Below are positions 1,550 through 29,784 of a stretch of 43,347 nucleotides of DNA, piece after piece. Below the pieces are notes generated by a model, which saw only the letters and a list, made by a program, of their open reading frames with translations, had not been told where the DNA came from and searched no databases. A program made the translations under genes and the position numbers. The DNA comes from a bacterium. Lineage in GTDB: Bacteria; Patescibacteriota; Microgenomatia; JAMCZE01. Numbering within the stretch: position 1 is the stretch's first letter; the number at the start of each line of letters is the position of its first letter. The stretch lies in contig JAKBJL010000005.1 in assembly GCA_021836035.1 (NCBI GenBank), positions 1 to 43,347 of the forward strand, read 5' to 3'.

Positions 1550-1641
1550 CTATTACTCGGGAGAAATAAGAGGGTTGCTATGCGCAGTTCTTCTTTCTTC
1601 TCTTTATTTATTTTAATAACGTTATTATATCGCTAACGGTC

Positions 1642-1911
1642 TTACTTTGCCAGGCCTAAATCGGCAACGATCTGCTTATAGCGGGCACTGGCTTGCTTTT
1701 GCAGATAATTTAACAAGCGGCGCCGTTTACTGACAATAGTTAACAACCCCCGGCGGGAATGGACATCATGGCTGTGTTTTTTCAGATGGCTTGTCAGGTT
1801 TTTAATGCGTTCCGTCAAAAGCGCGATCTGCACCTCAGGAGACCCGGTATCTCCTTTTCCTTGGGAAAATTTATCTATGATCTTTTTCTTTTCGCTGGGC
1901 TGCAAAGCCAT
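1642..1911 (-). CDS. rpsO: 30S ribosomal protein S15
   Basis: An 89 aa protein with [17 protein letters not shown] and [16 protein letters not shown], in conserved rpsO-pnp synteny. Confidence 0.95.
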
Positions 1912-1968
1912 AAACGTAAATATTGAATAATTAAACTAGTAGATTTTACCTTTTTTTACTCTTGCTGT

Positions 1969-2868: not shown

Positions 2869-2875
2869 GCTATTC

Positions 2876-4369: not shown

Positions 4370-4394
4370 AAGTAAAATTTAAGCGCGCTGCTTT

Positions 4395-5549
4395 TCATGT
4401 TTGGGATACATCTTTCGCGCTCCCGCCTTTGGCGGACTTTCCTACTGTTTCCGCTTCCTTTGCTTTCGTTGCTTTCTTTTTCCCCGTTTTCTTCGTCTTT
4501 TTTTCTTCCGGAACTTGTTCTGGAACTTTTTCCTGTTCCTGTACGGGAACTGTTGCCTTTTGGTATTCGTTTTTTCCTTTGATATCAATCCGCCAGCCGG
4601 TAACCTTAGCCGCGAGCCGGACATTTTGCCCGTCCCGGCCGATCGCTAAAGACAGCTGGTCGTCGGGAACCACTGCCGTTGCCGTTTTCTCCGCTACATT
4701 TAAAATAACTTCAATCTCTTTGGCTGGCGCTAAGGCCTGGGCAATTAAAATCTGGGCGTCCTCGCTGTATTGGATAATATCCACTTTCTCCGAACCGCCC
4801 AATTCATTAATTACCGCCTGAACACGAACGCCTTTCTGGCCGACACAGGCACCAACCGGATCTACCCCCGATTGAGTGGAAGCGACGGCTAATTTGGTTC
4901 TCCCGCCGGCTTCCCGGGCGATCAATCTAACTTCTACCGCTCCGTTCTGAACTTCCGGAACTTCCCGCTTAAATAGACCAATAACCAATCCCTCATGGGC
5001 GCGGGAAACAATGATCTCGCTCCCGCGGATACTTTCCCGAATGCCTTCAATATAAAAAACCAATCTCTGGTTAGGATAATAGCGCTCGGAGTTTACCTGT
5101 TCCTGGGGCGGCATAACCGCTTCCGCTTTGCCGATATCGACAATAATATTCGGTCCGTCGAAACGGAGAATCATGCCGTTGGCAATCGTTCCTACCTTCT
5201 GGGAAAAAACGGAAATTACGGCTTTCTTCTCCGCCTCACGGATTCTCTGAATTATTACCTGTTTGGCTGTCTGGGCGGCGATGCGGCCAAAACCCGGTGG
5301 AGTAATATCTTTACCCCGGCTGCCGTCCTCGTTCTTTTCAAAAATCCGCGCTTCCCCGCTATCCGGATCCAGTTCGGCAATGAGGTTGGTTATTTCCACC
5401 GCCTCGCCGGAAGTCAACAAGCGGTCCCGCCGATAGGCCGTCATTATCGCCTGGCGGATAGTTTCCAAAACCACTTCCATATCCAGGCCACGTTCGGCGC
5501 AGACCTGATTTAAAGCTAAAGCAAATTCACTTCTGACAACCGCTGGCAT
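4395..5549 (-). CDS. nusA: transcription termination/antitermination factor NusA with a Lys-rich C-terminal tail
   Basis: It has S1 and KH domains (VGACVGQKGVRVQAV, IGRDGQNVRLAAKVTGWRIDI). I prefer the ATG at 5549 (MPAVVRSEFALALNQ...). The ORF-track start at 5612 is a TTG that adds 21 non-conserved residues. Confidence 0.9.
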   Translation of the reverse strand: MPAVVRSEFALALNQVCAERGLDMEVVLETIRQAIMTAYRRDRLLTSGEAVEITNLIAELDPDSGEARIFEKNEDGSRGKDITPPGFGRIAAQTAKQVIIQRIREAEKKAVISVFSQKVGTIANGMILRFDGPNIIVDIGKAEAVMPPQEQVNSERYYPNQRLVFYIEGIRESIRGSEIIVSRAHEGLVIGLFKREVPEVQNGAVEVRLIAREAGGRTKLAVASTQSGVDPVGACVGQKGVRVQAVINELGGSEKVDIIQYSEDAQILIAQALAPAKEIEVILNVAEKTATAVVPDDQLSLAIGRDGQNVRLAAKVTGWRIDIKGKNEYQKATVPVQEQEKVPEQVPEEKKTKKTGKKKATKAKEAETVGKSAKGGSAKDVSQT

Positions 5550-5725
5550 AATTAATTTGCGAAGCAAATTACCCCGAGCGGAGTAGAAGGTTTCTGCCCT
5601 CCGCCAGAACAATTTGTTTCTTTTAATAATAAAAGGCGGGTCTCCCCACCTCTTAATTCTTACCGTTTATATTGTAGCACTAAGCTCTCGGGCGGGTCAA
5701 TGCCCCGGCCGATTTTGCCCAGGCA

Positions 5726-5744
5726 AGCACAAAAAATTTGTGCT
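5726..5744. promoter_or_regulatory. 19-bp palindrome AGCACAAA-AAA-TTTGTGCT in the divergent nusA / glycosidase intergenic region; candidate operator
   Basis: It has perfect 8-bp inverted arms read directly from the sequence, 33 nt upstream of the 5777 start. Confidence 0.3.
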
Positions 5745-5776
5745 AATCCTAGACTAGGAAGGATCTGCCGAAATTA

Positions 5777-8431
5777 ATGAAGAAATATTTCCGTTCGGCT
5801 GTCTTTAACTTTTCTTTTTTATTTCTACTTTACTTTGCTCTTCCCGTATCCGCCCAGAGCGCTCCGACAATTTCTTCCATCGCCGACAACCGCGCCGGTT
5901 ACCCTAACAGCCAAATTCCGAAATATGAAAAACTGGAAATTTCCTTCCGGGTCAATACTTCCTCTAACAATCCCTTTTTCCCCTATGACGCCGCGCCGCC
6001 GCCGGGAATAACCGCGGGCCAGGGGATAACGGTTAACGCGGTTTTTACGGCGCCTTCAGGCAAGGTAAGCACCCAACCGGCCTTTTATTACCAGGATTTT
6101 GATTACCAGGTGAAATCCGGACAGGATTGGTTTTACCCGACGGATAGCTTTCCCTGGAAGGTCCGTTTTACTCCCAATGAGGAGGGAAATTGGAAATATG
6201 TATTGTCGGCTCAGGATGCCGGCGGTACCACGTCGGCCGCGGAGCAAACGTTTTCCGTAGCTCCGTCTGCCAACCGTGGTTTTGTCCGGGTCAGCAAAAA
6301 TGACTCCCGCTATTTTGAATATGATGACGGAACCTATTTCCCCGGTCTTTCCTACAATATGAACTATTCCAATATTGATTGGACTAACCCCGTGCAGGCT
6401 AATCAGGCAAATTTCCAGAAAATGGGCCAAAATGGTATTCAGATTATCCGTCACTGGCTATCTCAGTGGGGTATATTTTCTTCAAATGACGTTTCCTGGG
6501 GCTCTGCCCGGAACGGTCCCGATGACGCGGGTATTACCGTTCCCTATATTTCCCAGACAGTAAACGGAGTTAATGTCCAAACCAGGGTAGCGCCCTATCC
6601 CGAGAGCGATGTGGCCATGCGGGCAGAGAATTATTGGGATCCGTGCATGTTCCTCTCCGGTTGGCAGCAGAGTATTCCGATGAAACCTAATACTAAATAC
6701 CATATTTTTATCCGCTACCTGATTCCTCCGGGTCAATATCTCAGCGGAGGAAAACTAACCGCCCGGTTTTCCGGATGGCTCGATAACCCACAATGCGCCG
6801 ACGCGACCAGCGGGGCTTTTTTGCCCTTAACCGGCGATGTCTCTCCCGATACCTCTCCGACAGACAACAACGGCAATGCGGTCTGGTCAATTTTGGAGGG
6901 AACTTTTAATAGCCAGAACCCGCCCTTTAATAATGTTTCGGTGATGCCCCGTTTTTATCTGTCGATTACCGGTCTGGATAATACTAATAGACCCTCTACC
7001 CCGACGGGGGCCGGAGAAAAAATCTTCATCGACCGGGTGGAAATTCGGGAAGACCCAAACGACAGCACCGACCCCTGCCGGAGAGCGGCCGGTTCCGGCT
7101 CGCTGTTCTTAGTCAGCTCGAGGAATTGCGGTATCAACGTTATCGGGAAACCCTGGATGTCCCATTATCAATATGTCGACCAACAACAGTCAGCCCGTTT
7201 TGACAAGGTAGTAGACCTGGCGAAACAAAACGGAGTTTATCTGAAGCTGGTAGTTTTGGAAAAAAACGAATATATCAGTAACCGTACCGATTATAACGGC
7301 AATACCATTCTGGATGGCCAGCCGGCTTGCAGTCAAAACCCGATTCCTCCCGGAACGGAATGTCCGGGAAACCGGTGGTTTTACGGAAATTGGCGATCCA
7401 TGACTAAAATCCGCTGGCTGCAAACCGCCTGGTTTAGGTATCTACAGGCCCGCTGGGGATATTCTCCCAATATTCATTCCTGGGAACTTGTTAACGAGGG
7501 CGATCCCTGGAACGGGCTGCATTATAGTTTGGCTGATGAAATGGCCAAATATATGCATCAGTTCGGCGCAGATTCCCATCTGGCGACGACCTCTTTCTGG
7601 CATTCTTTCCCCAAAGCGAATTTCTGGGCTAATAGTAACTACCCGAATCCGGATTACGCCGATGTCTACCGCTATATTTTTAACGACCAGGCAACTGCCG
7701 TGGACATCGGCGGAAACAATATTGCCGTGGCGCCGCTGGGTGACTATACGGATACAGCGGCGGAAGTACAGAAGCTTAGTATGCTTTTCGGAGCTAAACA
7801 GCAATATGGCGTGAATAAACCGGTGATGAGGGGAGAAACAGGTTTTGTGCTGGCGGGTAATACCGACGGTTGGGACCCGAACCTTGTTAATAAAGATTTA
7901 TCCGGTATCTGGTTATATAACTATATTTGGGCAGGAATAAATCCCGGCGGCCTGATTGAGTCCTATTGGTACGACCGTCCTCATATCTGGAATGACTCTT
8001 CGTATTATGGCCGTATCTTTGACCATCGCGATATTTACGGTACCTATTACCGTTTCATCAAAGACGTACCCCTGTCTAACGGCAAATATGTCGATGCGGC
8101 GGCTACCGTTACCGATCCTAACCTGCGGGTCTGGGGACAAAAAGATACCCCCGACGGTAAAGCCCACCTCTGGATAGCCAATCCCGCCCATACCTGGAGT
8201 AACGTGGTAAACAAGGTGACTATTGCTCCCATTTCCGCAACTATTACCTTAACCGGCTTTACTCCCAACAAAAGCTATCCTCTGGAGTGGTGGGATACCT
8301 ATTCCGGAGCTCCGTCGTCAACTACCAGTGCCGTAACCGACGGAAACGGAAATTTGACGTTTTCCGAACTTCCGATAGTGCCGTTAAAATCGGTACCTAC
8401 CAACCGGGAACTTTTACCCCCGAAGATTTAA
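5777..8431 (+). CDS. secreted multi-domain glycoside hydrolase-like protein (clan GH-A / GH5-like catalytic core after an N-terminal beta-sandwich domain); C-terminus probably frameshifted
   Basis: A signal peptide is present (MKKYFRSAVFNFSFLFLLYFALPVSAQS). The N-terminal YEKLEISF...NPFFPYD resembles DUF5060-type domains, from memory. HSWELVNEGDP looks like a clan GH-A acid/base NE motif, and VMRGETGF is a candidate nucleophile. Confidence 0.65.
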   Translation: MKKYFRSAVFNFSFLFLLYFALPVSAQSAPTISSIADNRAGYPNSQIPKYEKLEISFRVNTSSNNPFFPYDAAPPPGITAGQGITVNAVFTAPSGKVSTQPAFYYQDFDYQVKSGQDWFYPTDSFPWKVRFTPNEEGNWKYVLSAQDAGGTTSAAEQTFSVAPSANRGFVRVSKNDSRYFEYDDGTYFPGLSYNMNYSNIDWTNPVQANQANFQKMGQNGIQIIRHWLSQWGIFSSNDVSWGSARNGPDDAGITVPYISQTVNGVNVQTRVAPYPESDVAMRAENYWDPCMFLSGWQQSIPMKPNTKYHIFIRYLIPPGQYLSGGKLTARFSGWLDNPQCADATSGAFLPLTGDVSPDTSPTDNNGNAVWSILEGTFNSQNPPFNNVSVMPRFYLSITGLDNTNRPSTPTGAGEKIFIDRVEIREDPNDSTDPCRRAAGSGSLFLVSSRNCGINVIGKPWMSHYQYVDQQQSARFDKVVDLAKQNGVYLKLVVLEKNEYISNRTDYNGNTILDGQPACSQNPIPPGTECPGNRWFYGNWRSMTKIRWLQTAWFRYLQARWGYSPNIHSWELVNEGDPWNGLHYSLADEMAKYMHQFGADSHLATTSFWHSFPKANFWANSNYPNPDYADVYRYIFNDQATAVDIGGNNIAVAPLGDYTDTAAEVQKLSMLFGAKQQYGVNKPVMRGETGFVLAGNTDGWDPNLVNKDLSGIWLYNYIWAGINPGGLIESYWYDRPHIWNDSSYYGRIFDHRDIYGTYYRFIKDVPLSNGKYVDAAATVTDPNLRVWGQKDTPDGKAHLWIANPAHTWSNVVNKVTIAPISATITLTGFTPNKSYPLEWWDTYSGAPSSTTSAVTDGNGNLTFSELPIVPLKSVPTNRELLPPKI

Positions 8432-8541
8432 ATAACGACGGGCATGTCGATATTGCCGATTTAAGAATCGCTTTAACATCCTTCGGCAGCCCCTACAATA
8501 TTTTTGACATCAGTGAGGTAATTAGCAATTTTGGGAAGTGA
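8287..8541 (+). pseudogene. out-of-frame C-terminal continuation of the glycosidase, carrying a dockerin/EF-hand-like Ca-binding repeat
   Basis: The alternative frame reads ...SDSAVKIGTYQPGTFTPEDLNNDGHVDIADLRIALTSFGSPYNIFD, which has a D-x-N-x-D-G-x-V-D-x-x-D motif. The main frame ends in the non-descript SELPIVPLKSVPTNRELLPPKI. The frames overlap across 8287-8431. Confidence 0.5.
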
Positions 8542-8551
8542 CCGGGACGGG

Positions 8552-9472
8552 CTAAAACCACCCGTTCCTTTTTTTCGCGGAAGCTTTTTGGTAGTCTTCC
8601 AACAATTCTTTCTGTTCACGATTTAAACGGGTCGGGATTTTAATTTTGACCCGGACAAATTCGTCTCCGGTAACGTTCATCCGCGGAATTTTAATCCCCC
8701 GTCCGCGCAGGCGGATAACCGTATCCGGCTGGGTGCCTGCCGGGATTTTTAGGGTTACCGGGCCGTCAATCGTCGGTACTTCAATCGTCGTCCCGAGTAC
8801 CGCCTTATCAAAATCTACCCGGGTTTCGACAATAATATTAGCCCCTTCCCGCTGAAAGGCTTTATCCGGCCAAACCTGGATCACCACGTCAAAGTCCTCA
8901 AATCGGACGCGGGTGCCGTCGTCTACCCCGGCGGGAATCTTAAGTTTTTGTTGTTTCCCCGAAATCTCTACCGTCTTTTCCGTTCCCTTGGCCGCTTCCA
9001 TAAAGGTCAGTCCCAGAGAATAAGTTGCCCTTCTGCCCCGCCTTTGGCCGGCAGCGCTAAATCCTCCGCCGAAAAACTGTTCAAAAATCTCAAAAGGATC
9101 CGAAAAACCTCCGAAGTCCCATCCCGAAGCCGGTCCGCCTTGGGCGGAAAACCCGGCAAAGGGGTTCTGCCCTCCACCGTAGTTTCCATAACTATAGGTA
9201 AAAGGTCCCTGCTGGTATCCTCCGCCGGGCCCTTGGCCGGCTCCCTGGGTAAAGGCGGCATGACCAAACCGGTCGTAGGCCTGCTTTTTCTGGGGATTGG
9301 AAAGGACCTCATAAGCTTCGTTAACTTGTTTAAACTTTTCCGTCGCCCGGGGATCTTTATTGCGGTCCGGATGCCACTCCAAGGCCATTTTACGGTATGC
9401 CGCTTTAATCTCCTGCTCGCTGGCATTTTTTCCTATTCCCAAAGTCTGGTAATAATCCTGATTATTAGCCAT
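8552..9472 (-). CDS. dnaJ: DnaJ-class co-chaperone, type II (J domain + G/F region + C-terminal domains, no Zn-finger CxxCxGxG repeats)
   Basis: It has DYYQTLGI...HPDRN, a G/F-rich linker, and the last position in the hrcA-grpE-dnaK-dnaJ operon. I prefer the ATG at 9472 (MANNQDYY), because the ORF-track start at 9478 is a TTG. Confidence 0.9.
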   Translation of the reverse strand: MANNQDYYQTLGIGKNASEQEIKAAYRKMALEWHPDRNKDPRATEKFKQVNEAYEVLSNPQKKQAYDRFGHAAFTQGAGQGPGGGYQQGPFTYSYGNYGGGQNPFAGFSAQGGPASGWDFGGFSDPFEIFEQFFGGGFSAAGQRRGRRATYSLGLTFMEAAKGTEKTVEISGKQQKLKIPAGVDDGTRVRFEDFDVVIQVWPDKAFQREGANIIVETRVDFDKAVLGTTIEVPTIDGPVTLKIPAGTQPDTVIRLRGRGIKIPRMNVTGDEFVRVKIKIPTRLNREQKELLEDYQKASAKKRNGWF

Positions 9473-9482
9473 AAACAAAAAA

Positions 9483-9580
9483 GAGTAATCGCAAATATAC
9501 GAATTTTAGGCAAAATATACCAATATACGGATTAGCATATAAGTATATTTCGTTTTAAATTGGTATATTAGAGATTACTC
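9483..9580 (-). promoter_or_regulatory. nested inverted repeats filling the dnaK-dnaJ intergenic spacer
   Basis: The outer arms are GAGTAATC (9483-9490) and GATTACTC (9573-9580). The inner perfect 11-bp arms are AATATACCAAT (9514-9524) and ATTGGTATATT (9559-9569). Confidence 0.4.
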
Positions 9581-9582
9581 CC

Positions 9583-11505
9583 TTATTCTACTACTTCCCC
9601 TTCTACCGGTTCTCCGGTCCCTCCGGCGGATCCGCTGGTCCCGCCGCCCGATCCCTGCTGCCCCTGTTGTCCGTCCCCCTCAGCCGTTTGACTATTCCCC
9701 GGTTGTCCGCCCGGGGCGGAATACATAGCCTGTCCGATTCTCTGTAATTCGTCGGAGAGCGCCCGCGATTTAGTTTCCATCTCTTCTTTACTGCCGCTAT
9801 CTAAAACTTTTTTCAGGTCCGCAATTTTTTCTTCTACATTTTTCCGGACATCAGCAGGCACCTTATCCCCCGCGTCCTTAAGAGATTTTTCCGCCGTAAA
9901 TATGAGGGAGTCGGCGTTATTTTTGGCGTCAATTGATTCTCTTTTCTGCTTATCTTCCTCGGCGTGCGCTTCCGCCTCTTTGGTCATCTTTTCAATTTCG
10001 TCTTTGGAGAGGCCGGTCGAACCGGTAATTTTAATGCTTTGCTCGCGGCCGGTGGCTTTATCTTTGGCTTTGACGCTCAAAATCCCTGAGGCGTCGATAT
10101 CAAAGGCCACTTCAATCTGCGGAACGCCGCGCGGCGCCGGGGGAATACCGTCCAAAATAAACCGTCCCAGAGACTTGTTGTCCGCGGCCATAGGCCGCTC
10201 GCCCTGAAGGACGTTAATTTCTACCTGGGTTTGATTATCTGCCGCCGTAGAAAATATTTGCGACTTACTCGTAGGCACGGTTGTATTCCTCTGGATAAGG
10301 GGAGTATCTACGCTCCCCAAGGTTTCAATACCTAAAGTCAGCGGGGTAACGTCAAGGAGCAAAACATCTTTCACTTCTCCGCCCAGTACTCCTCCCTGGA
10401 CCGCCGCGCCGACCGCCACCACCTCATCCGGGTTGACCGATTTATTCGGCTCTTTACCGAAAAACTTCGTTACCGTCTCCACTACTTTCGGCATCCGGGT
10501 CATTCCCCCGACCATAACTACTTCGTCGATGTCGGTAGTTTTCTTTCCGGCATCGGCTAACGCTTTTTTGCAGGGTTCCAAAGTTTTCTGGATCAGATCG
10601 TCAACAATCTGCTCCAGCTTAGCCCGGGTCAATTTCATGGTTAAATGCAAAGGCCCGTTGGGCCCCTGGGTGATAAAAGGCTGGTTTATCTCCACTTCTG
10701 TTGCCGAGGATAATTCAATTTTGGCCTTTTCCGCTGCCTCGCGCAGTCTCTGCAAAGCCTGTGGATCTTTGCGCAAATCGACCTGGTTTTCTTTCTTAAA
10801 TTCGTCGGCAATATAATCTAAAATCTTTTTATCAAAATCATCGCCGCCGAGGTGAGTATCACCGTTGGTCGATTTTACTTCATAAACACCTTCGCCTAAT
10901 TCCAAAATGGAAACATCAAAAGTGCCGCCTCCCAAGTCGTAAACAACGATGGTATGGGCGTTTTTCTTGTCCAGACCGTAAGCAAGTGCTGCCGCCGTCG
11001 GTTCATTAATTATCCGCAGGACTTCAAGGCCCGCGATCTCTCCCGCTTGTTTGGTCGCCTGTCTTTGGGCATCGTCAAAATAGGCCGGAACCGTAATTAC
11101 CGCCTGGGCAACCTTCCCGCCCAGGTAAGCCTCGGCGTCTGCTTTAATTTTTTGGAGAATCATCGCGGAAACTTCCTGAGGGGTAAATTGCCGTCCCGCA
11201 ACCTCCACAACCGCCATGCCGTCGCGGCCGGATTTAATTTCATAAGGCAGCCACTTAGTATCATATTGGACCGAGGGATCGGTGTATTTCCTCCCCATGA
11301 GCCTTTTGATGGAAAAAATCGTTTCCTTGGGTTTGAGAACTAATTGGCGTTTAGCAACATCGCCGACGACATGGGTGATCGGATCGACTACCGACGGAAT
11401 AACATTCCGCCCTTCGCGGCTGTAAATAACCTTCGGCGAGCCGCCTTCCATCACGGCAACGCAGCTATTGGTTGTTCCTAAGTCAATTCCGATAATTTTT
11501 GCCAT
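9583..11505 (-). CDS. dnaK: molecular chaperone DnaK (Hsp70)
   Basis: It has [26 protein letters not shown] and a Gly/Gln-rich tail ending EGEVVE. Confidence 0.98.
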
Positions 11506-21608: not shown

Positions 21609-22694
21609 ATGCCAGAACAACATTGGGAATACGTCGCGGTTGCCGGTAAAAGAAACGGAAAGCCAAATTTTCCCCCCCTCAACCGGGAGCAACAAAAACT
21701 AATCCCCGCCTTTGACGATGCCTTAAATGTAGCAGCCCAATCTGAAGTTTCTCACCCTATCTATTCCGGCTACCGCGTCAAGGAGTCAATTTCCGGGTTG
21801 CCTGCGGGGAACATTTCTTATGGCAAAAAAAGGGCTTTACACGGAGAGGAAGTTGCCGTAGCCAACATCTATTCAAAAGAGGGTATTGTCTCTGCTTCCG
21901 AATTGCCCTTAATTCTCAGAAATATTGCCACTTATAATCCCGCTATTGCCCTCCCCAAAATAATTCCCAATCTGATATTAGCAATTATTGCCCACGACCC
22001 GGATGGGATGGCTAAGCCTTGCGGTAATTGCCTGGATTTGCTGAGAGACAAATTAGGGCGGTCCCTCAACGTCGTTTTCGGGGCCAGTGGCGGAGGCGAA
22101 GCGAAAGTGGCAAAATTGGGCGATTTCCTTTTTGAAGTCGGCCGGGAGCACCGCATCAGCTTAAGAGCAAGAGAAGGACCTAATTTAATCGCCACCCTGG
22201 CCGGGCAAACCTTCAGCGAAGGAACAAGGCTGACCGATGACGCCTATGTTTCTAAAGCCGAAGCGCTTTCCCGCAATTACAACGCATTAGTCGTTACGAA
22301 TAAAGGCAAATACTACGGCGGCTATGAATGCCTCTGTGATTATCACCCGATTTATGCCGGCCGGGATGCTATCCGCCAGGCCCGGCGGGCCCATGACTAT
22401 TTTCTGCGCTACGCACTTTTTACAGCCCCCGGCCCGGGAAATAATCCTCCGGATATAATGTACATGGATCGGCAGCATTTAATGGAGTACGCTCTTATTG
22501 GAGACCTGGAAACAGGCAGAGAAGGTGATAAACCTGTTTATCTCGCTTCCATAGACCCGCAAAGGAAAGCCGTCACCGGTTTATGGCAAACAAGCGTTAG
22601 AGAATTTCTGCCGTTCCCTTTTAGCCCGATTAATTTTGGTGAGGAATTTGTTTCTCATTTCAAAGAATATTATCGCCGGCGGAAACGGTTTTAG
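21609..22694 (+). CDS. divergent two-domain cytidine/deoxycytidylate-deaminase-fold protein
   Basis: The N-terminal half has LHGEEVAVANIY (an H-x-E zinc/catalytic motif) and KPCGNCLDLL (a PCxxC zinc motif). The C-terminal half lacks these motifs but ends VREFLPFPFSP, like the LLP-x-x-F end of cytidine deaminases. This resembles the E. coli Cdd catalytic + pseudo-domain layout. Confidence 0.55.
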   Translation: MPEQHWEYVAVAGKRNGKPNFPPLNREQQKLIPAFDDALNVAAQSEVSHPIYSGYRVKESISGLPAGNISYGKKRALHGEEVAVANIYSKEGIVSASELPLILRNIATYNPAIALPKIIPNLILAIIAHDPDGMAKPCGNCLDLLRDKLGRSLNVVFGASGGGEAKVAKLGDFLFEVGREHRISLRAREGPNLIATLAGQTFSEGTRLTDDAYVSKAEALSRNYNALVVTNKGKYYGGYECLCDYHPIYAGRDAIRQARRAHDYFLRYALFTAPGPGNNPPDIMYMDRQHLMEYALIGDLETGREGDKPVYLASIDPQRKAVTGLWQTSVREFLPFPFSPINFGEEFVSHFKEYYRRRKRF

Positions 22695-22743
22695 CGGTTC
22701 CAGGGTGTTTGAGGATTGAACCCTCTTCCGGAGTTTAACAATC

Positions 22744-22770
22744 AGTTCGGATAATGACACTTCTTGAAGT
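22744..22770. repeat. copy A of a 27-nt imperfect direct repeat bounding the QueC-like cassette
   Basis: AGTTCGGATAATGACACTTCTTGAAGT matches 24069-24095 at 23/27, and all 4 differences are transitions. It starts 2 nt after the QueC-like stop codon. Confidence 0.7.
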
Positions 22771-22771
22771 T

Positions 22772-23926
22772 TTACCCAAACAGGACACCATAACGATGAT
22801 CCAAATCAGATAAGTGCGAATGAAAGCTCGTCGAAACGGTATTATGCCCATATCTTTTTATCCATTGTTTGGTGTCTTTAATAAAATATGATATTTCTTC
22901 GGACGGCACACCAGAAAGTCGAGTGTCCTCATAGTAAATTCGTCCAAGTACGGTTCTTCGACATTTGGGACAACTTCCACAAGTGTTTTCACTTAAACAT
23001 GCTTTTGCCAATTCCGGAGTTTTCCGCTCCCATTTACGCCGGTTGTTGGCAGCCCAGCATTTCCGGGTAAAGCAGTTTTGAACTAAAGGAAGAATAGTGA
23101 TATTTAACTTTTTTTCCAGGTTTAGGATTTCCCCTACCGTTTCAATATCACCGGGATATTCTCCGGTTACATTAATATCCAACCCGGCATCCGATAGCAA
23201 ATTATTGAACAAATTCCACGCGCCTTTGGATTCACTGAAATCACCCTCATCCGGCGAATCTACAAACCCGCCCTCTACAAGCACTTCTTTAATTCCATAA
23301 CGATAGGCCGTTAAAACTACTGTTGCCGCGACCAGTAGATCTCTAACTCTCATAACATCCAATCCCTTAAGTTCCGAACTGTTGATTACTTTAACTTCCG
23401 TAAAGGGAACATTCCATTGTTTACATTGATAGCTGCTTCTCTCAGCTTCATCTCCGGGCAATACACGGTTGAGGTTTCTAAGATGAACCGCTCTGACCAT
23501 TTCTCCACGGGCTAAATGGCTGGCAAGCCGGAAACATGAATCCAATCCACCGGAATGAGAATTGACGATATATGCGCCGTCATTTAGCTTGGATTCGTTT
23601 GAATGAAATTCAAGGTTTAATCTATTGCTGTTTGCAGAAATTTTTGGAGGGCGGTATCCATAATAATCGTAAAGAGCGTTTACTAAATCGGTATAATTGA
23701 CCGGAAAATTTGTTTCAATAATCCGGGGAAAATAAGCGGATACTAAATGCGACAAGGCAACAGTGCGCCACAAGTCCCGGATAACTTTTGGCTGATCAGA
23801 TAAAGATCTTTCTGGATCGACTATCGCGATCTGTTCGTTGTGTTTTTTTCCTTTAAGTTTCAGACTAAACGGATTCTTCGGTGAAATATTAACCTCGCAT
23901 TTATCCGCTTGTTCGATTCTGGTCAT
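22772..23926 (-). CDS. QueC-family PP-loop ATP pyrophosphatase-like protein with a ~120 aa N-terminal extension
   Basis: It has VNSHSGGLDSCFRLA (the SGGxDS PP-loop). The C-terminal Cys cluster is QNCFTRKC...CGSCPKCRR, as in the QueC zinc site. Confidence 0.7.
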   Translation of the reverse strand: MTRIEQADKCEVNISPKNPFSLKLKGKKHNEQIAIVDPERSLSDQPKVIRDLWRTVALSHLVSAYFPRIIETNFPVNYTDLVNALYDYYGYRPPKISANSNRLNLEFHSNESKLNDGAYIVNSHSGGLDSCFRLASHLARGEMVRAVHLRNLNRVLPGDEAERSSYQCKQWNVPFTEVKVINSSELKGLDVMRVRDLLVAATVVLTAYRYGIKEVLVEGGFVDSPDEGDFSESKGAWNLFNNLLSDAGLDINVTGEYPGDIETVGEILNLEKKLNITILPLVQNCFTRKCWAANNRRKWERKTPELAKACLSENTCGSCPKCRRTVLGRIYYEDTRLSGVPSEEISYFIKDTKQWIKRYGHNTVSTSFHSHLSDLDHRYGVLFG

Positions 23927-23932
23927 GGCCGG

Positions 23933-23961
23933 ATTCTAGCAACGGCCAATTTCCGTGTCAA
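23933..23961 (-). promoter_or_regulatory. consensus promoter of the QueC-like gene with leaderless geometry
   Basis: The minus strand reads TTGACA (23961-23956), a 17-nt spacer, TAGAAT (23938-23933), then 6 nt (CCGGCC) and the ATG at 23926. Confidence 0.65.
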
Positions 23962-24048
23962 CTAATATAGCGATTTGACAATCCAAACTATTAAACCGGG
24001 TCATGGCGCTTTTTTAATCCCACAGCAAGGGAAGCAACTCAGGGAAGC

Positions 24049-24076
24049 AAAAAAACATTCCGAACTTTAGTTCGGA
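24049..24076 (-). terminator. Rho-independent terminator of the signal-peptidase-like gene
   Basis: The minus strand reads UCCGAACU-AA-AGUUCGGA followed by AUGUUUUUUUG. It overlaps repeat copy B. Confidence 0.65.
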
Positions 24077-24095
24077 TAGTGGCATTTTTTGAAGT
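24069..24095. repeat. copy B of the 27-nt direct repeat
   Basis: AGTTCGGATAGTGGCATTTTTTGAAGT. See copy A for the match. Confidence 0.7.
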
Positions 24096-24183
24096 GTCAG
24101 CAATATAGGGTACCACATTAATTTTATCTATCAGCCCCAAATGGAAGGTATTCGAACATTTTGTGCTCAATTAGTGGTATCTT

Positions 24184-24735
24184 TTAATACCTGAAGGCTA
24201 TTTTTCCGACAATATCCTGTTTACCTATGAAACCTAAACTACGTGAATCAATACTATTATTTCTGTTGTCGCCCATCATAAAATAGCTATTATCGGGAAT
24301 TGTAATTTCTTGGCCTTCGTCTAAAATCTTTGGTCCTCCCGTATCCTCAATTTTTCCAGTTGTTTCAGATATATCTATAATCGCACTTTTATTGGCTGTC
24401 GTTGTTACAGTACCAGGTTGTAGATAACTTTCAGCTAGTACCGCGCCATTCAGATACACTTTACCGTTTTGTATTTTTATTTTGTCTCCTGATAGAGCAA
24501 TTATTCTAGCAATACCTGAATAATGGGGATTCTGAGTGTAGCCAAAAGTTACAACATCACCTCGTTGGGGCGAAGAAAAAGTATATGCTAGTTTATTCAC
24601 AAGAAATCTCTCACCACTCTTATAAGTTGGTTCCATTCCAGGTCCATTTATTGATACAGGTTTGAAAGTGACAAATAGGGTTACTAATAAACCAGCTAAT
24701 ACTCCAATAACCACGAACTGTAAAATCTTTGACAT
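24184..24735 (-). CDS. type I signal peptidase (S26) homologue lacking the Ser/Lys catalytic dyad; predicted pseudo-peptidase
   Basis: It has an N-terminal TM segment. Box B reads NGPGMEPTY where SM-x-PT is expected. Box C RGDVVTF is intact. Box D reads GIARIIALSGD where Y/F-I/V-K-R-x-x-G-x-PGD is expected. Box E MMGDNRNNSIDSR is intact. Confidence 0.75.
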   Translation of the reverse strand: MSKILQFVVIGVLAGLLVTLFVTFKPVSINGPGMEPTYKSGERFLVNKLAYTFSSPQRGDVVTFGYTQNPHYSGIARIIALSGDKIKIQNGKVYLNGAVLAESYLQPGTVTTTANKSAIIDISETTGKIEDTGGPKILDEGQEITIPDNSYFMMGDNRNNSIDSRSLGFIGKQDIVGKIAFRY

Positions 24736-24741
24736 AATTTA

Positions 24742-24770
24742 AATCTAACAGGAGAAAATGTTAGTTACAA
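24742..24770 (-). promoter_or_regulatory. promoter of the signal-peptidase-like gene with leaderless geometry
   Basis: The minus strand reads TTGTAA (24770-24765), a 17-nt spacer, TAGATT (24747-24742), then 6 nt and the ATG at 24735. Confidence 0.55.
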
Positions 24771-24996
24771 GTAGTGTGTTATATAGAGATGGCTATGAGA
24801 AAAGGCTATTTGAATTTTCAGCAGACATGGTTGGAATCGAGCTTGCTCTTCTTTAAATACCATGTGGTCGTGGATGAAGGCAAAACTTGCCGAAACGGCT
24901 AATCTAGCTAGTCGATGGGTGAGTCGGTTTGGCAGTGTTTTATGCGGAAATCGTTCGCGCCTATGTGTGGTACTAAAATGTAGGTCTTAGACTATA

Positions 24997-27864
24997 TTAA
25001 CGCCCTAAATCCTTATCAAGGTGGCAATGTTTATATTTCTTCCCACTCCCGCACCAGCAGGGATCGTTTCTCCCCGGCTTTTTAATTCCCGGCGCGGAAT
25101 TCCCTACGGGTAAGCCGCTCGTCCTTGAACTTGAACTTGCACTTTGTTTTATTTGCTGTGCTTCCTCTTTTACTCCTGCCTCGATATTTTCAATCTGCGC
25201 CGCATTCGTAGTCGCCCGCTGCATTTGGGCGATCTGCTCAGGCGTCGCGACGGCAATTTTATAAATCCGGTGGACGATTTCGTAATCAACAGAGGCAATC
25301 AATTTTTCAAACATTGTAAAGGCTTCCGCCTTATATTCAACCAACGGATCCCTTTGGGCGTAACCCCGCAGCCCTATGCCTTCGCGCAAATCGTCGATTT
25401 CCTCGAGATGTTCCATCCATAAAGCGTCTATTACCCGAAGCATTTCCTGTTGTTCAATATAACGGGTAATTTTCCCGCCCAATTGTTTCTCTCTTTGTTC
25501 ATAAATATCATGCGCAATTTTTTGTAATAAAGGGCCTAGGGATGAGGAGCTGGCAGCTAGTTGAACAACGATTTGCTTTTTCGAATTATCATCAAAGGGA
25601 ATGATCGTCGAAAATTCTTCAATGATTTTTTCCGTGCCGTTTTTATCCCCTGTTTCGACTACCCCATATTGTTCTTTGCCGCCGGAATTGATAGCCACCA
25701 GATTTTCTATTTCCTTATCAATTTTGGCTAAAATTTCTTCTTTCAGCCAATGACCATTTTCCGCGGCCTCCCCATTCCCGTCTTCCGTTTCCATTTCCTT
25801 CCCCTCGCTTGCCCCGAGTGAAATCGCAGGGTCAGCGGCTAGCCCCGTCTCATTAGCCCCCCTATTTAAAGCGCTCAACACTTTCCGTCTTAATCCATAG
25901 ATGATCTCCCTCTGCTTGTTCATCACGTCGTCATATTCCAAGAGGTGCTTGCGGGAATCAAAATTAAATTGCTCTACTTTCGATTGAGCCTGCTCAATCG
26001 ACTTGCTGACCATACCGTGTTCCAGGGGCTGGTCTTCGGGAATATTAAAAAGGGTCATGAGCCGCGCTACCTGTTCCCCGCCGAAAAGGCGCATAACGTC
26101 ATCGTCCAGCGCGACAAAAAACCGGCTAGAACCGGGGTCCCCCTGGCGCCCCGCCCGGCCCCGCAGCTGGTTATCAATCCGTCGCGACTCATGCCGTTCC
26201 GTGCCGATCACATGCAGGCCGCCAAGCGTGACTACTTCGTCATGGTCCTTCTGCCAGGCTTTCCACTCCGGACTGCCGATCAGCGGACGCCCGTCTGCCT
26301 GTTTGGGCGTTACCCCGCCTAAAATAATATCGACGCCGCGGCCGGCCATGTTGGTCGCGACGGTAACGGCGCCGCGCTTTCCCGCCTGGGAAATAATCAG
26401 GGCCTCCTTTTCGTGCTGTTTGGCATTTAAAACCTGGAAAGGAATACCTTTGTGGCGCAGAAACTGGGAAATAATCTCATTTTTCTCGATAGAGGTGGTT
26501 CCGATTAAAACCGGCCGGCCGATTTTATGCATTTCCTCAATTTCCCGGACGACCGCGGAATATTTCGCCCTCTGCGATTTATAAACCTGGTCGGTAGAAT
26601 CATTCCGAACCATCTGCTTATTAGTCGGAATGGCAATTACTTCCAGATTGTAAATTTTATGAAACTCTTCCGCCTCCGTCGCCGCGGTCCCCGTCATCCC
26701 GGCCAACTTTTCGTATTTCCTAAAATAATTTTGCAGGGAAATAGTCGCCAAAGTCCTGCTTTCCTGCTGGATGGGAACACCCTCTTTGGCTTCGACAGCC
26801 TGGTGAATTCCTTCGCTCCAGCGCCGTCCCGGCATCAGTCTCCCGGTAAATTCGTCAACAATTATCACCTCGTTGTCGCGGACTATATAATCTTTTTCGC
26901 GGTGGTATAGGGTTCTGGCTTTCAAAGCCGCTTCAACATGATGAACCGTCGCGAAATCTTTTTCGTAAATATCTTTAGATCCTAACATCTGCTCAATTTT
27001 GCCGATCCCGTGGTCGGTAAGGTTGGCAGTATGCATTTTTTCGTCAACGACATAATCCAGTTTCGCCGTTAAACCTTCCACCAAACGCGCATATTCGTAA
27101 TATTTCTGTGTCGGCTCCGCGTCGGGGGCGGAAATAATATGCGGCGTCCGGGCTTCATCGATTAAAACCGAGTCCACTTCGTCAACTATCGCGTAATGGA
27201 AATCGCGCTGGACCAGCTCCGCTTCTTCGCGGGCCATATTGTCCCGGAGATAGTCAAAACCGAACTCGGAATTAATACCGTAGGTAATATCCGCACCATA
27301 GGCTTCTTTGCGGGATACCGGACGCAGGTGGCGCAGGCGCCAATCGGGCGCGTTTTCATCCGTAAATTCCGGATCATAAACGAAAGAGGCTTCGTGAATA
27401 ATCGCCGCGCAGGACAATCCCAGAATATGATAAATCGGGCCCATCCAGCCGACCCCAACCCGCGCCAGGTAATCGTTAACGGTAACCAGGTGTGCGCCTT
27501 TGCCGGTCAGGGCATTTAAATAAAGTGGCATGGAGGCGGTTAAAGTCTTCCCTTCCCCCGTTTTTTGTTCAGCGATTTTTCCCTGGTGCAAAGCAATTGC
27601 GGCCATCACCTGGACATCAAAATGGCGCTCGTTATTAACCCGGGCGCTGGCTTCCCGGACCAGGGCATAAGCCTCGGGGAGCAGCCCGTCGAGAGAACCG
27701 CCCTTAGCCAGTTTCTCTTTCAACTTCGCTGTTCTTTTGGCAAAATCGGCTTCTTTCAGCTTCTTGACCTCTTTTTCCCAAGCATTAACCTCCGTTACCA
27801 ACGGCATTAACTTTTGAACCTGGCGTTCATTGCTGTCAATAATTTTCCCAATAAAATCCAGCAT
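24997..27864 (-). CDS. secA: preprotein translocase ATPase SecA
   Basis: It has TGEGKTLTASMPLYLNAL, DEVDSVLIDEARTP, TNMAGRGVDI and the C-terminal zinc motif CWCGSGKKYKHCH. Confidence 0.98.
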   Translation of the reverse strand: MLDFIGKIIDSNERQVQKLMPLVTEVNAWEKEVKKLKEADFAKRTAKLKEKLAKGGSLDGLLPEAYALVREASARVNNERHFDVQVMAAIALHQGKIAEQKTGEGKTLTASMPLYLNALTGKGAHLVTVNDYLARVGVGWMGPIYHILGLSCAAIIHEASFVYDPEFTDENAPDWRLRHLRPVSRKEAYGADITYGINSEFGFDYLRDNMAREEAELVQRDFHYAIVDEVDSVLIDEARTPHIISAPDAEPTQKYYEYARLVEGLTAKLDYVVDEKMHTANLTDHGIGKIEQMLGSKDIYEKDFATVHHVEAALKARTLYHREKDYIVRDNEVIIVDEFTGRLMPGRRWSEGIHQAVEAKEGVPIQQESRTLATISLQNYFRKYEKLAGMTGTAATEAEEFHKIYNLEVIAIPTNKQMVRNDSTDQVYKSQRAKYSAVVREIEEMHKIGRPVLIGTTSIEKNEIISQFLRHKGIPFQVLNAKQHEKEALIISQAGKRGAVTVATNMAGRGVDIILGGVTPKQADGRPLIGSPEWKAWQKDHDEVVTLGGLHVIGTERHESRRIDNQLRGRAGRQGDPGSSRFFVALDDDVMRLFGGEQVARLMTLFNIPEDQPLEHGMVSKSIEQAQSKVEQFNFDSRKHLLEYDDVMNKQREIIYGLRRKVLSALNRGANETGLAADPAISLGASEGKEMETEDGNGEAAENGHWLKEEILAKIDKEIENLVAINSGGKEQYGVVETGDKNGTEKIIEEFSTIIPFDDNSKKQIVVQLAASSSSLGPLLQKIAHDIYEQREKQLGGKITRYIEQQEMLRVIDALWMEHLEEIDDLREGIGLRGYAQRDPLVEYKAEAFTMFEKLIASVDYEIVHRIYKIAVATPEQIAQMQRATTNAAQIENIEAGVKEEAQQIKQSASSSSRTSGLPVGNSAPGIKKPGRNDPCWCGSGKKYKHCHLDKDLGR

Positions 27865-28049
27865 AAATTCCCTTCTTCAGGTTTTATTTTATCACTTATC
27901 GGCGCTCCCGAGACGGCCGAAACCGCGATTTTAAATCTTTAACCTCCTGCCGTCAACAAATTAGTCCCTTGTAATCCGCTCCCGATAAGTTTAAAAATTT
28001 ATTGCACACAATTTACTCTGCCCACACATCTTATGCCTACACTTGGGAT

Positions 28050-29222
28050 ATGGCATTAAGCGAAGAAGAAATTGCCAGGCACAAGGCGGAAAGCGACGCC
28101 GAATTCCAAAGGCTAATTGTCAGGGGAGAAGAAAAAGACGGCTCCCAAATCCCGGATTCCCCCCCGGAAAATAAGCACCCCAAAAAAGAAAAAATTCCCT
28201 TTATTAAAAGGCTTCTGGGTAAAGATCGTATTTATATCAGCAGCGTCATCGAGAAAATGATTGAGATCACCGACGAAAATAAGCCGCCGGCAGATAATCC
28301 CTCGGGAGAGCTAAAGAAACGACGGACAAGAAGCAAAAGGGAAGAAATGCTCTCTAAGAAAGGCGGCTTTATAGGCCACGATATTATTCCCTTAATCGTA
28401 ATTGCTGCCCAAAACCCCCGTATCTCCCTTTCTTCTCTGGAAAAAACGTTCCCTTCAAAAACTCCCACGGAAATTAAAAAATTGAAAAGCCGGATTGAAG
28501 CGGCCCTAAAACCAGAGGAATCGGTAACCGATTTACCGGTGGATATTTTAACCCTCATTGAATCCTCAAAGGATATTAAAGGTTATGATGAATGGTACTG
28601 GAGCCGGTACGAAAACAGGAAAGACAACAAAAAACAAAAGGCATGGGAAAAACAACGCGCCGCGGGGCAAGATACTTTTCTGGATATCAACGCTTATTAT
28701 CAGAAACCGCCCCGTGATATTTTGGTCCGCTCGGCGGGAGAAATTGCCCGGCAGGTAATTTATCACCCCCTGCTTTCTGATCCCGAAACCCGCCTAGAAA
28801 TCGAGCGCTCGCAGATTACCCCTACCGCTACCGATTTCTTTATTTCCAGCCGCGATGATATTTTATTAATTGATCGGGACGGCAATCGGTTTCCGCTGGA
28901 GCTGAAACCGCATCCGGTCGGCGGGAAAAGGGTAAGAATCGAAACTTTTGCCGCTCTTAAAATTAACGAGGCGGCAAAAAGAGGCGGATTTAATCGGGTG
29001 GTTAACATCTATCCGCGGGGAGAAGAAAGTTATCACATTGACGTTGCCAAATCGCTCATCGAAGGCACTTTTGTCCCGCCCGGGATTTATCATGTTATTT
29101 TGGGTCTGAATTTTAACGGAGAAGCGTATTATCCCCAGGTTATCCTGGACCCGCCGACGTTGGCAGTATTGGAAGAAACTTTTACGGAAGCCTTAAAGCG
29201 CCTCACCGGCGCCGACCTCTGA
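28050..29222 (+). CDS. hypothetical protein; C-terminal region has a possible PD-(D/E)xK-like signature
   Basis: I prefer the ATG at 28050 (MALSEEEIARH) over the TTG at 28002. It has a charged, low-complexity N-terminal third. The C-terminal ATDFFISSRDDILLIDRDGNRFPLELKP fits D...E-x-K spacing, which is speculative. Confidence 0.5.
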   Translation: MALSEEEIARHKAESDAEFQRLIVRGEEKDGSQIPDSPPENKHPKKEKIPFIKRLLGKDRIYISSVIEKMIEITDENKPPADNPSGELKKRRTRSKREEMLSKKGGFIGHDIIPLIVIAAQNPRISLSSLEKTFPSKTPTEIKKLKSRIEAALKPEESVTDLPVDILTLIESSKDIKGYDEWYWSRYENRKDNKKQKAWEKQRAAGQDTFLDINAYYQKPPRDILVRSAGEIARQVIYHPLLSDPETRLEIERSQITPTATDFFISSRDDILLIDRDGNRFPLELKPHPVGGKRVRIETFAALKINEAAKRGGFNRVVNIYPRGEESYHIDVAKSLIEGTFVPPGIYHVILGLNFNGEAYYPQVILDPPTLAVLEETFTEALKRLTGADL

Positions 29223-29247
29223 CACATCTTTACTTTCGCGTTATAAT
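29219..29247 (+). promoter_or_regulatory. strong promoter in front of the 29248/29257 gene, overlapping the upstream stop codon
   Basis: CTGACA (29219-29224), a 17-nt spacer, then TATAAT (29242-29247). The ATGs lie 0 nt (29248) and 9 nt (29257) downstream. Confidence 0.55.
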
Positions 29248-29784
29248 ATGCAGACCATGGCGGAAAAAGAACCCAGGATAATCAATATGGGCCTTCCGAT
29301 CCCCGAAGGGTACGAAGTGGCTAAGGTTAGTGTTAGGCTTAAAAAGCGCTCCCCGCGGATATCCGAACAAAACCTAAGAGAGACAGAACGGTATGTGAAT
29401 AAAATAATTGAAGGAAAAGTGGAAACTGCTTCTTTTTATGCAGATGTTCAGGATTATATCGCCAACAACGAACAACCGCTAGTAAACTTAATAGGGGGCG
29501 CGAAAAGGGACACCGATGTGAATATCGAGGATACCTTCGATCTGAATGAGCCGGAGCAAAGACAAAATTTAGGTCGGAAATTAGATAGCTTGGCTATCTC
29601 CCCAAAAGAATTTAACCACAAAGTAGCAGAAGATTTAAAAGCCACCGAAAATTGGTCAGATGCCTGGAGCGCGCGACGAACCGCTCTCGCCCGCCTCGTT
29701 TATAAAAGACTCAAAAAGGATAATCCGCAAGAAACTCCCCAAAACCTCCAGCATAACATCCGCCGCCTGACTGTCCGCAAATAA
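29248..29784 (+). CDS. hypothetical protein (the start may be the ATG at 29257)
   Basis: A 178 aa ORF with no competing ORF and no motif I recognise. Confidence 0.5.
   Translation: MQTMAEKEPRIINMGLPIPEGYEVAKVSVRLKKRSPRISEQNLRETERYVNKIIEGKVETASFYADVQDYIANNEQPLVNLIGGAKRDTDVNIEDTFDLNEPEQRQNLGRKLDSLAISPKEFNHKVAEDLKATENWSDAWSARRTALARLVYKRLKKDNPQETPQNLQHNIRRLTVRK

Follow-up and report, generated by a model that had tools for sequence, protein, structure and literature searches.

A gene cassette carrying a spare secA tail is shared by two Patescibacteria of one mine-drainage community

The window analysed here is a whole stretch of 43,347 nucleotides (contig JAKBJL010000005.1, assembly GCA_021836035.1), a housekeeping region of a Microgenomates-type member of the Patescibacteria from a mine-drainage metagenome. 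On its minus strand lies a small gene cassette, 22764 to 24091, which encodes a single QueC/QatC-like protein and is bounded by two direct repeats. In this study, we show that each of these repeats is a spare copy of the 3' end of secA (eight codons plus the stop codon), we delimit the cassette, and we demonstrate that the same cassette is present in two species of one mine-drainage community. We consider the cassette to be a small mobile element inserted by recombination at a secA-tail sequence, not by a transposon-style duplication of its target, and give this reading a probability of roughly 60%.

A preliminary description of the locus had reported a 27-nt direct repeat at 22744-22770 and 24069-24095 which agrees at 23 of 27 positions. 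Coordinates and counts were reproduced, and all four differences are indeed transitions. The pair is unique, as an all-against-all 27-nt scan of the window revealed no other pair with at least 23 matches. A degenerate pattern of the 27-mer, allowing up to three mismatches, was found at two sites in the 43-kb window and in none of 100 dinucleotide shuffles. Ungapped similarity reaches 47 nt (22744-22790 against 24069-24115, 74%), and local alignments compared with shuffles gave no significant similarity between the copies beyond these 47 nt on either side. A six-frame scan with the codon table showed that both copies read F-K-K-C-H-Y-P-N-stop on the minus strand in one and the same frame. The four differences (AAA/AAG, AAA/AAG, TGC/TGT and CAC/CAT) are synonymous changes at third positions, and the next difference, TAA against TGA, leaves a stop codon in both copies. 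Among the 120 closest SecA homologues listed, ...KKYKKCHYPN (...CWCGSGKKYKKCHYPN-stop) is the commonest C-terminus. Judged from these sequences, FKKCHYPN-stop is the end of the SEC-C zinc-binding motif, the usual SecA C-terminus in this clade of Patescibacteria (Microgenomates). Since both copies encode this usual ending, the repeat is a spare secA tail. The displaced tail copy A occupies 22742..22768 of the minus strand (TTC AAG AAG TGT CAT TAT CCG AAC TGA) and overlaps the 27-mer at 22744-22770; tail copy B occupies 24067..24093 (minus strand; TTC AAA AAA TGC CAC TAT CCG AAC TAA) and overlaps the 27-mer at 24069-24095. The suggestion that two neighbouring genes carry a shared 3' module is not borne out, the repeat being secA coding sequence and not a 3' untranslated region or terminator of lepB or of the QueC-like gene.

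Evidence for a second genomic context comes from two public mine-drainage sequencing runs which hold the locus, X1 and X2, analysed as assembler contigs (k = 31). Left and right in this paragraph follow the numbering of the window. In both runs the contigs break at the repeats, and 22764-24091 forms a separate contig with exactly these ends; this 1,328-bp contig was also found in ENA/Logan. Its depth is 47.2 in X1, where the flank known from the window has 38.9 and a second right flank 6.7. The corresponding values in X2 are 81.6, 38.9 and 41.8. In both runs the depth of the cassette is the sum of those of the two alternative right flanks. A second left flank, which diverges at 22763, has a depth of 9.7 in X1 and 30.8 in X2. 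Because the depth ratios differ between X1 and X2, the two contexts represent different populations.

The alternative right flank starts with TACTTTTTCCCCGACCCGCACCAACAGGGA, which in reverse complement is the stretch of L018 that codes for the SEC-C motif. L018, found by fetching the closest SecA relatives, is the terminal piece of an NCBI contig belonging to a different assembly. L018 SecA is 72% identical to that of the window, and upstream synteny is kept (greA, an aminoacyl-tRNA synthetase (aaRS) gene, HD, serS, ddl, methyltransferase, secA). L018 secA ends in ...CCC TGT TGG TGC GGG TCG GGG AAA AAG TAC AAA AAA TGC CAC TAT CCG AAC TAA. The contig continues for 151 nt past this stop codon, through the cassette terminator and promoter and into the first codons of the 384-aa gene. 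Over 176 nt it shows a single mismatch to the cassette of the window, and this mismatch is the allele seen in X2. Overall, cassette identity between the genomes amounts to 99.4-100%, against 72% for their SecA proteins; the flanks outside 22764-24091 are unrelated between the two contexts. L018 secA is in frame with the cassette tail (...GSGKKY|KKCHYPN*), the cassette supplying the last seven codons, the stop and the terminator.

The cassette contig of X2 differs from the window by four single-nucleotide polymorphisms, at 23192, 23461, 23602 and 23939, one of which replaces Ser108 by Ala. Both window-type flanks in X2 are identical to the window, and L018, which spans just one of the four sites, 23939, agrees there with X2. 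This hints that cassette alleles track the sample rather than the species, as after recent exchange, with the proviso that contig data can hide mixtures. Another contig, L016 (GCA_027371575.1), belongs to the species of the window (99.99% identical) and shows an oddity at its end, in 1-70 as compared with 63-10658. Here window positions 24233-24302 (lepB, forward) are joined with an 8-nt overlap to 23366 downwards (QueC-like gene, reversed), and this reflects either a chimera formed in inverted orientation at the contig end or a genuine inversion.

The mobile unit (22764..24091, minus strand), identical in the two genomic contexts and delimited by contig ends, comprises 1,328 nt, that is, the 1,325-nt spacing of the repeats plus a 3-nt CAA overlap found at both ends. 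In gene order it consists of a replacement secA tail ((C)AA AAA TGC CAC TAT CCG AAC TAA), an intrinsic terminator, a promoter, the QueC/QatC-like gene and a left arm. That the repeats bracket one gene plus its promoter was recognised correctly in the preliminary description: a single open reading frame (ORF), 22772-23926, follows a near-consensus promoter, and the terminator makes the unit self-contained. The promoter (23933..23961, minus strand; TTGACA, 17 nt, (TG-n)TAGAAT) matches the consensus at 11 of 12 positions and carries the additional TG. The ATG lies 6 nt past the -10 element and a Shine-Dalgarno sequence is absent; from this spacing the mRNA is probably leaderless. The terminator (24049..24076, minus strand), identified by a terminator scan and RNA folding, lies inside the segment common to both contexts. 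It consists of TCCGAACT-AA-AGTTCGGA followed by a T-run (T7 tract) and has a folding energy of -11.9 kcal/mol (z = -2.9). Its 5' stem TCCGAACT is built from the tail codons (ta)T CCG AAC T(aa), and the 3' stem and T7 lie past the stop. Copy B does contribute one arm of this hairpin, the 5' arm, as had been noticed; the decayed version said to follow copy A is no more stable on folding than its shuffles (z = +0.7).

Comparison of the two contexts locates the point of exchange. At the left end in gene order, they merge at C24091 (...CACTT|CAAAAAATGCC in the window, ...AAGTA|CAAAAAATGCC in L018), and at the right end they part after ...AAAACTTCAA| (22764). Copy B belongs to the cassette from C24091 downwards and is identical to the 3' end of L018 secA. 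In the window, tail B has the cassette-type codons throughout (AAA AAA TGC CAC) and tail A those of the other type (AAG AAG TGT CAT), which places the exchange in the 7-nt sequence ACTTCAA at the 5' edge of the tail. This is outside the longer identical run TATCCGAACT, where a homology-driven exchange would be expected. When left arm B is joined to tail A, the resulting sequence, TGACAC TTCAAGAAGTGTCA(T)TATCCGAACT, matches the natural single site of L011, a different organism, at all but 1 of 33 positions. Insertion of a gene, one of the two readings offered earlier, is upheld by the finding of the same unit in a second context in another species. The accompanying mechanism, duplication of the target, fails when understood as the product of a staggered cut, given that one copy is borne by the cassette and the other was already at the insertion site.

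We propose that an integrative gene cassette of 1,325 bp is joined to its surroundings at the two repeat copies, one being its left junction and the other its right. In a circular form of the cassette, left arm and tail would make up one site of about 50 bp. This site may recombine conservatively, by a site-specific reaction, with a resident secA-tail sequence, which would be the true secA end in the second species and an older displaced tail behind lepB in the window. The recombinase would presumably act in trans, as none is encoded in the cassette or was found in the window. An empty site in the second species would be expected to join the L018-type secA tail directly to ...GGTGACAGTATTTTTAGACAATCTCCCGTT. 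We favour a site-specific enzyme over homologous recombination because the exchange lies at the edge of the homology and because the left arm is conserved behind six unrelated genes.

The left arm is a sequence of about 24 nt that stands in register before each tail; copies A and B follow [TC][GA]T GGT nnC CTR T[TA]T nGn TRR [CA]AC. Left arm A (22769..22795, minus strand; CGT TAT GGT GTC CTG TTT GGG TAA AAC) is in register with five other copies. Left arm B (24094..24120, minus strand; TAA TGT GGT ACC CTA TAT TGC TGA CAC) lies downstream of lepB, outside the QueC cassette. The QueC-like ORF runs into left arm A and terminates at its in-frame TAA. Since none of the 78 homologues examined shares the ending ...RYGVLFG that this creates, all finishing shortly past a conserved SFLxHLxxL, left arm A is not the natural end of the QueC-like gene.

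A motif scan of one genome per GTDB species (23 specified repeat bases, 596 Gb) yielded four loci in other metagenome-assembled genomes, with about 0.02 chance matches expected. L009, L012 and the JGI/ENA contig L014 are one sequence, and L010 and L011 come from different organisms. L019, fetched independently by its SecA similarity, has a left-arm-plus-tail unit as well. In every such locus, left arm and tail are conserved together over about 50 nt, and conservation stops precisely at the stop codon. Wherever secA shares the contig, the unit sits downstream of it in the same orientation. The order is secA, a 196-aa (amino acid) ORF and the unit in L011; secA, a 543-aa ORF and the unit in L019; and secA, a helicase gene on the opposite strand and the unit in L014. 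Each of these genomes (L009/L012/L014, L010, L011, L019) has one unit copy, and these stand downstream of unrelated genes. SecA of these unit-bearing Patescibacteria is 55-72% identical to that of the window, the lowest value being that of L011, and their displaced tails do not differ at synonymous sites. TAT CCG AAC is the codon choice in every displaced tail, which suggests that the tails belong to one mobile lineage and were not displaced locally. The preliminary description would have been refuted by a common terminator-associated sequence behind many unrelated genes. In a formal sense this is what is seen, the motif standing behind unrelated genes (lepB and ORFs of 180, 196 and 543 aa) in different genomes, but these are junctions of the same kind and not a generic terminator. 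The complementary terminator arm adjoins copy B only, among the unit copies compared.

Further searches added one sequence already known: JGI metagenomes contained one real match to the unit, the same sequence as L009. Two other JGI matches (L015 923-947 and L013 572-596) are GC-rich, overlap listed ORFs and are without a left arm; they read FFNKCHYPN and DFKNCQYPN in the register of the motif and are regarded as chance. PLSDB plasmids and GenBank phages gave partial matches at chance level only, IMG/VR gave no match, and the genomes of cargo homologues L002-L008, in which the gene has other contexts, contained no left-arm-plus-tail sites. In run X1, two contigs of 4,197 bp and 758 bp contain a sequence like left arm plus tail (cf. 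24065-24117), with 6 and 2 differences, respectively. Their flanks are unrelated, and other members of the community therefore have the unit too. In L014, comparison of about 2170-2200 with about 5060-5090 shows the sequence following the secA stop, TAGGGTACCACAT, to be an inverted repeat of left arm ATGTGGTATCCTA, and the two flank the helicase gene; 4 of 1000 shuffles score equally. Terminal inverted repeats around a 'lepB element' were considered and discarded, being significant only in L014 and not in the window, L019 or L011. A small ORF in another frame, M-P-L-S-E-L, was likewise discarded, as neither its length nor its sequence is conserved past the DNA motif. Also discarded was the idea that a paralogous QueC-like gene had left a remnant on the upstream side of copy B: alignments past the 47 nt are at shuffle level and the family is without the YGVLFG ending.

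Several observations weigh against insertion by recombination at secA tails as we propose it. The right junction (in gene order) of the second species is seen only as a contig of 125-133 bp, and the tail is not read directly there. This short alternative left-flank contig (by window numbering) has five differences from 22741-22763 (23 nt), the number expected if the second species has a type-1 tail with TAA at this point, so that an inferred junction tail of this kind would fit. Neither a circular form nor an excision joint was seen in the contig-level data, and no strict empty site was found for the species of the window; both statements refer to assembler contigs, which drop rare variants. 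No integrase, recombinase or transposase domain was detected in the ORFs scanned, which cover most window ORFs of at least 120 aa and selected ORFs flanking the motif or secA in related loci. There is no second unit copy within 5-8 kb in the other unit-bearing genomes, which leaves an 'array' unproven. Resident secA tails do not use the codons of the displaced tails (TAC CCA AAT in L011, TAT CCT AAT in L017), and the simple picture of a displaced local tail is incomplete in this respect. Three of the six relatives fetched by SecA similarity (L020, L021 and L022) have a non-canonical SecA tail and no displaced tail. The prediction that every non-canonical SecA tail (CH-L/M-D/N...) is accompanied by a displaced usual tail downstream fails in these three.

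Going beyond this single cassette, the Patescibacteria (Microgenomates) may possess an undescribed integron-like cassette system with the SecA zinc-finger tail as its platform. Small self-expressed cassettes, differing in their unrelated cargo, would each be bordered by a spare secA tail on one side and by a conserved arm of about 24 nt on the other. An unlinked recombinase would place them at the secA end or at older junctions, variable genes would pile up downstream of secA, and cassettes would pass between species. We put this forward tentatively and think the odds lie somewhat against it.

Among the alternatives to a dedicated site-specific reaction, the one that survives best is that the cassette moves without a recombinase of its own. 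A circle, or DNA taken up perhaps by natural transformation between co-resident Patescibacteria, would integrate by short-homology (RecA-type or illegitimate) recombination at the 24-27-nt secA tail. Such a target is conserved across the clade, the flanking direct repeats could circularise the cassette, donor and recipient species occur in the same samples, and no recombinase was found near the cassette. The position of the exchange speaks against it, since in the window this fell in the 7-nt identity at the edge, ACTTCAA, and not in the longest identical run. Moreover, homology-driven insertion has no need of the ~24-nt left arm that is conserved behind six unrelated genes, and 24-27 nt with four mismatches are, by the usual minimal homology lengths, a poor substrate. 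We rate short-homology integration as unlikely, though it deserves to be taken seriously.

Far less probable is the absence of any mobility, with the tails as relics of local secA 3'-end duplications or as a vertically inherited 3' module and the second context as a strain-level rearrangement. Single unit copies downstream of secA in several lineages could indeed mean an old inherited feature. Vertical descent is at odds with a cassette that is 99.4-100% identical where SecA is 72% identical, with unrelated flanks outside 22764-24091, and with displaced tails that agree at synonymous sites across genomes with 55-72% SecA identity.

We give equally little, if not less, credence to the repeat as a functional non-coding element, be it a structured RNA or terminator module, an operator, or a Xer/dif-type site used by an integrating element. 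An inverted repeat, TGGCA/TGCCA (or TGACA/TGTCA), surrounds TTCAARAA in L009 and L011, copy B forms part of a terminator, and the 27-mer is loosely like a dif site in its layout. Only 2 of 6 copies have the inverted repeat in perfect form, and the variation is explained by synonymous codon changes. A hairpin with compensatory pairs (TGGCA..TGCCA against TGACA..TGTCA) was rejected on this ground, as the variation amounts to third-position changes in the C-H codons. There is no Rfam match to the repeat, the terminator partner exists only in the cassette, and conservation ends exactly at the stop codon. A dif/Xer site was also rejected for want of a GC-skew switch: the skew is negative over the whole 43 kb, with no extremum at 22-24 kb and no change of sign in the window, which is consequently not a replication terminus. 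Finally, an assembly or binning artefact, a false join of the second context through the short shared secA-tail sequence, is hardly credible. All evidence of that context does stem from short-read assemblies, and L016, a related contig, has an odd inverted junction at its end. The shared sequence, however, does not reach the length k = 31, the 31-mers that make the link contain bases past the stop codon, the depths add up in two runs of different ratios, and the NCBI contig, assembled independently, continues into the cassette for 151 nt past the secA stop and carries the X2 allele.

With respect to known mobile elements, the cassette comes closest to two kinds, integron cassettes and islands that target a conserved gene and restore its 3' end. 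Islands at gene 3' ends are found at tRNA and transfer-messenger RNA genes and, in staphylococci, at rlmH/orfX as the staphylococcal cassette chromosome (SCC). As in these, the final codons of the target gene are present in both direct repeats, the incoming DNA rebuilds the 3' end and leaves the gene intact (seen here in L018), and the repeats differ by silent changes. An occupied target is present in two species, with single unoccupied units in L009, L010, L011 and L019. For SCC-type arrays, recombinase-less elements and possible tandem accretion downstream of the target are known. The present element is different in that its target is the SEC-C zinc-finger tail of secA, that it measures only 1.3 kb with a single cargo gene, and that it also brings a terminator for the target gene and a promoter of its own. 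Furthermore, the cassette and the ORFs scanned in the window and at the flanks yielded no recombinase of Ccr, tyrosine or serine type. We know of no description of the SEC-C tail of secA as an attachment site.

Integron cassettes, which recombine by attC x attI under IntI, resemble the element in having one gene and no recombinase per unit, a recombination site at the gene 3' end, a fixed insertion platform and possibly unrelated cassettes stacked in one orientation. Unlike in integrons, no intI lies beside the platform (the 406- and 178-aa ORFs upstream of secA and others were scanned). The 50-nt unit has no R''/L''-L'/R' organisation and no RYYYAAC...GTTRRRY cores as in attC, only a 5-bp inverted repeat. 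Exchange occurs in the middle of the ~50-nt unit and leaves a half site at each end of the linear cassette. Nor is the cassette promoterless, as it has its own promoter, 11/12 to consensus, and an upstream terminator, and it is the coding end of an essential gene that serves as platform. Integrative mobile elements exploiting Xer (IMEX) and pdif modules are likewise small and recombinase-less, with repeats of about 28 bp and presumably a host enzyme. The site described here is derived from secA, is not placed at a GC-skew switch and is in direct orientation, and no XerC/XerD-type arm organisation was demonstrable in the unit. Transposons and insertion sequences with target-site duplication differ by the repeats of 27-50 nt with silent differences, by the lack of any transposase found and by an inverted repeat that is significant only in L014. 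The cassette fails the defining tests of integrons, transposons and dif-exploiting elements. A look at the literature on integrons in Patescibacteria and on integration at the secA end turned up nothing relevant.

The cargo gene (22772..23926, minus strand) encodes 384 aa, a predicted PP-loop ATP-pyrophosphatase of QueC/QatC-like type. Against Pfam QueC (PF06508) the protein scores 14.8 bits, below the cut-off of 22. NCBIfam QueC gave no match, the PADLOC QueC model reached only E 0.026, and a profile search of PDB sequences returned nothing useful. Invariant in the family are the PP-loop HSGGxDS (H124-S130) and the cysteines C285, C316, C319 and C322. The AlphaFold model has a pLDDT (predicted local distance difference test) of 87. 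Its best Foldseek match is QatC (9y02_B; full length, E 6e-8, TM (template modelling) score 0.49), followed by QueC (3bl5, E 1e-5), Cap9 (9nto_B) and LarE, with 12-19% identity to these solved structures. Judged from the modelled fold and the invariant residues, the earlier label 'QueC-like' is fair; at the level of the Pfam family it does not hold. QatC of the QatABCD system, Cap9 and QueC share the PP-loop fold and a C-terminal Cys cluster with the cargo, and its extra N-terminal domain aligns over the full length of QatC. In contrast to the Qat anti-phage system, the cargo is solitary and without QatA, QatB and QatD. Neither these nor genes of CBASS (cyclic oligonucleotide-based anti-phage signalling system) stand beside it, its neighbours being lepB and a 361-aa ORF. 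Homologues form 79 clusters of at most 46% identity, from Patescibacteria wherever a source is named. They are solitary genes in varied contexts and are widespread in Microgenomates.

Bacteria of the candidate phyla radiation have small, streamlined genomes, and gene exchange among them is poorly understood. To our knowledge, few mobile elements have been described in them. Here the attachment sequence is the end of an essential gene that is conserved across the clade, and it is repaired by the cassette on insertion. Left arm plus FKKCHYPN-stop provides a searchable signature for gene flow and variable regions in these genomes, and left arm plus tail defines a substrate with which the recombinase may be identified. 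The closest structural match of the cargo, QatC, functions in phage defence, which raises the idea that defence-type genes travel by such cassettes.

As regards the host locus, the window contains infB, nusA, dnaJ-dnaK-grpE-hrcA, groEL, rnhB, capA, secA, lepB, ddl, serS, an aaRS gene and greA, and Rfam detects only one RNA, a tRNA-Glu. On the minus strand, secA (27864-24997) is followed by lepB (24735-24184), copy B, the 384-aa gene and copy A; then comes a convergent ORF of 361 aa (21609..22694, plus strand), which bounds the locus on the far side, outside the cassette, and keeps its neighbours in another assembly of the window's species. It has no family match save a weak cytidine-deaminase-like stretch (residues 126-175, E 0.008). 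Divergent from secA, at 28002-29784 (plus strand), are the ORFs of 406 and 178 aa, without Pfam match or integrase domain. L017, L018 and L019 have ORFs at the same position beside secA, compared by position only, which are also without Pfam match.

The secA gene itself (24997..27864, minus strand; identified by Pfam) has its own SEC-C motif at 25059-25021 and a non-canonical tail, ...KKYKHCH-LDKDLGR*. Tails of this type, CH-[LM]-[DN]-x-[DN]-L..., occur in about a dozen scattered relatives. About 45 nt past the secA stop (TAAnAnAATCTrAAC...CATTT...ACCACAT) are conserved in four lineages (window 24997-25059, minus strand; L019 12645-12790; L014 5020-5165; L022 12735-12880), which is odd for intergenic DNA at 59-72% SecA identity. 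The non-canonical tail, with these nucleotides behind it, may be a trace of an earlier insertion. The gap between secA and lepB (24736-24996) is unusually long, with 261 non-coding nt.

Between secA and copy B lies lepB (24184..24735, minus strand), encoding signal peptidase I (Pfam Peptidase_S26, E 3e-42). About a dozen homologues, of Roizman-/Gottesmanbacteria type, exceed 45% identity; further matches, below 40%, are to named Firmicutes (Moorella, Desulfotomaculum) and Anaerolineales. From this distribution LepB looks like an accessory signal peptidase, possibly acquired by transfer. Homology of the lepB region to the relative L023 (79.5% at the nucleotide level) covers 24750-24141 only and ends before left arm B. 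In L023, lepB follows what appear, read by eye, to be the 3' ends of tRNA genes and not secA, and lepB is possibly an earlier insertion.

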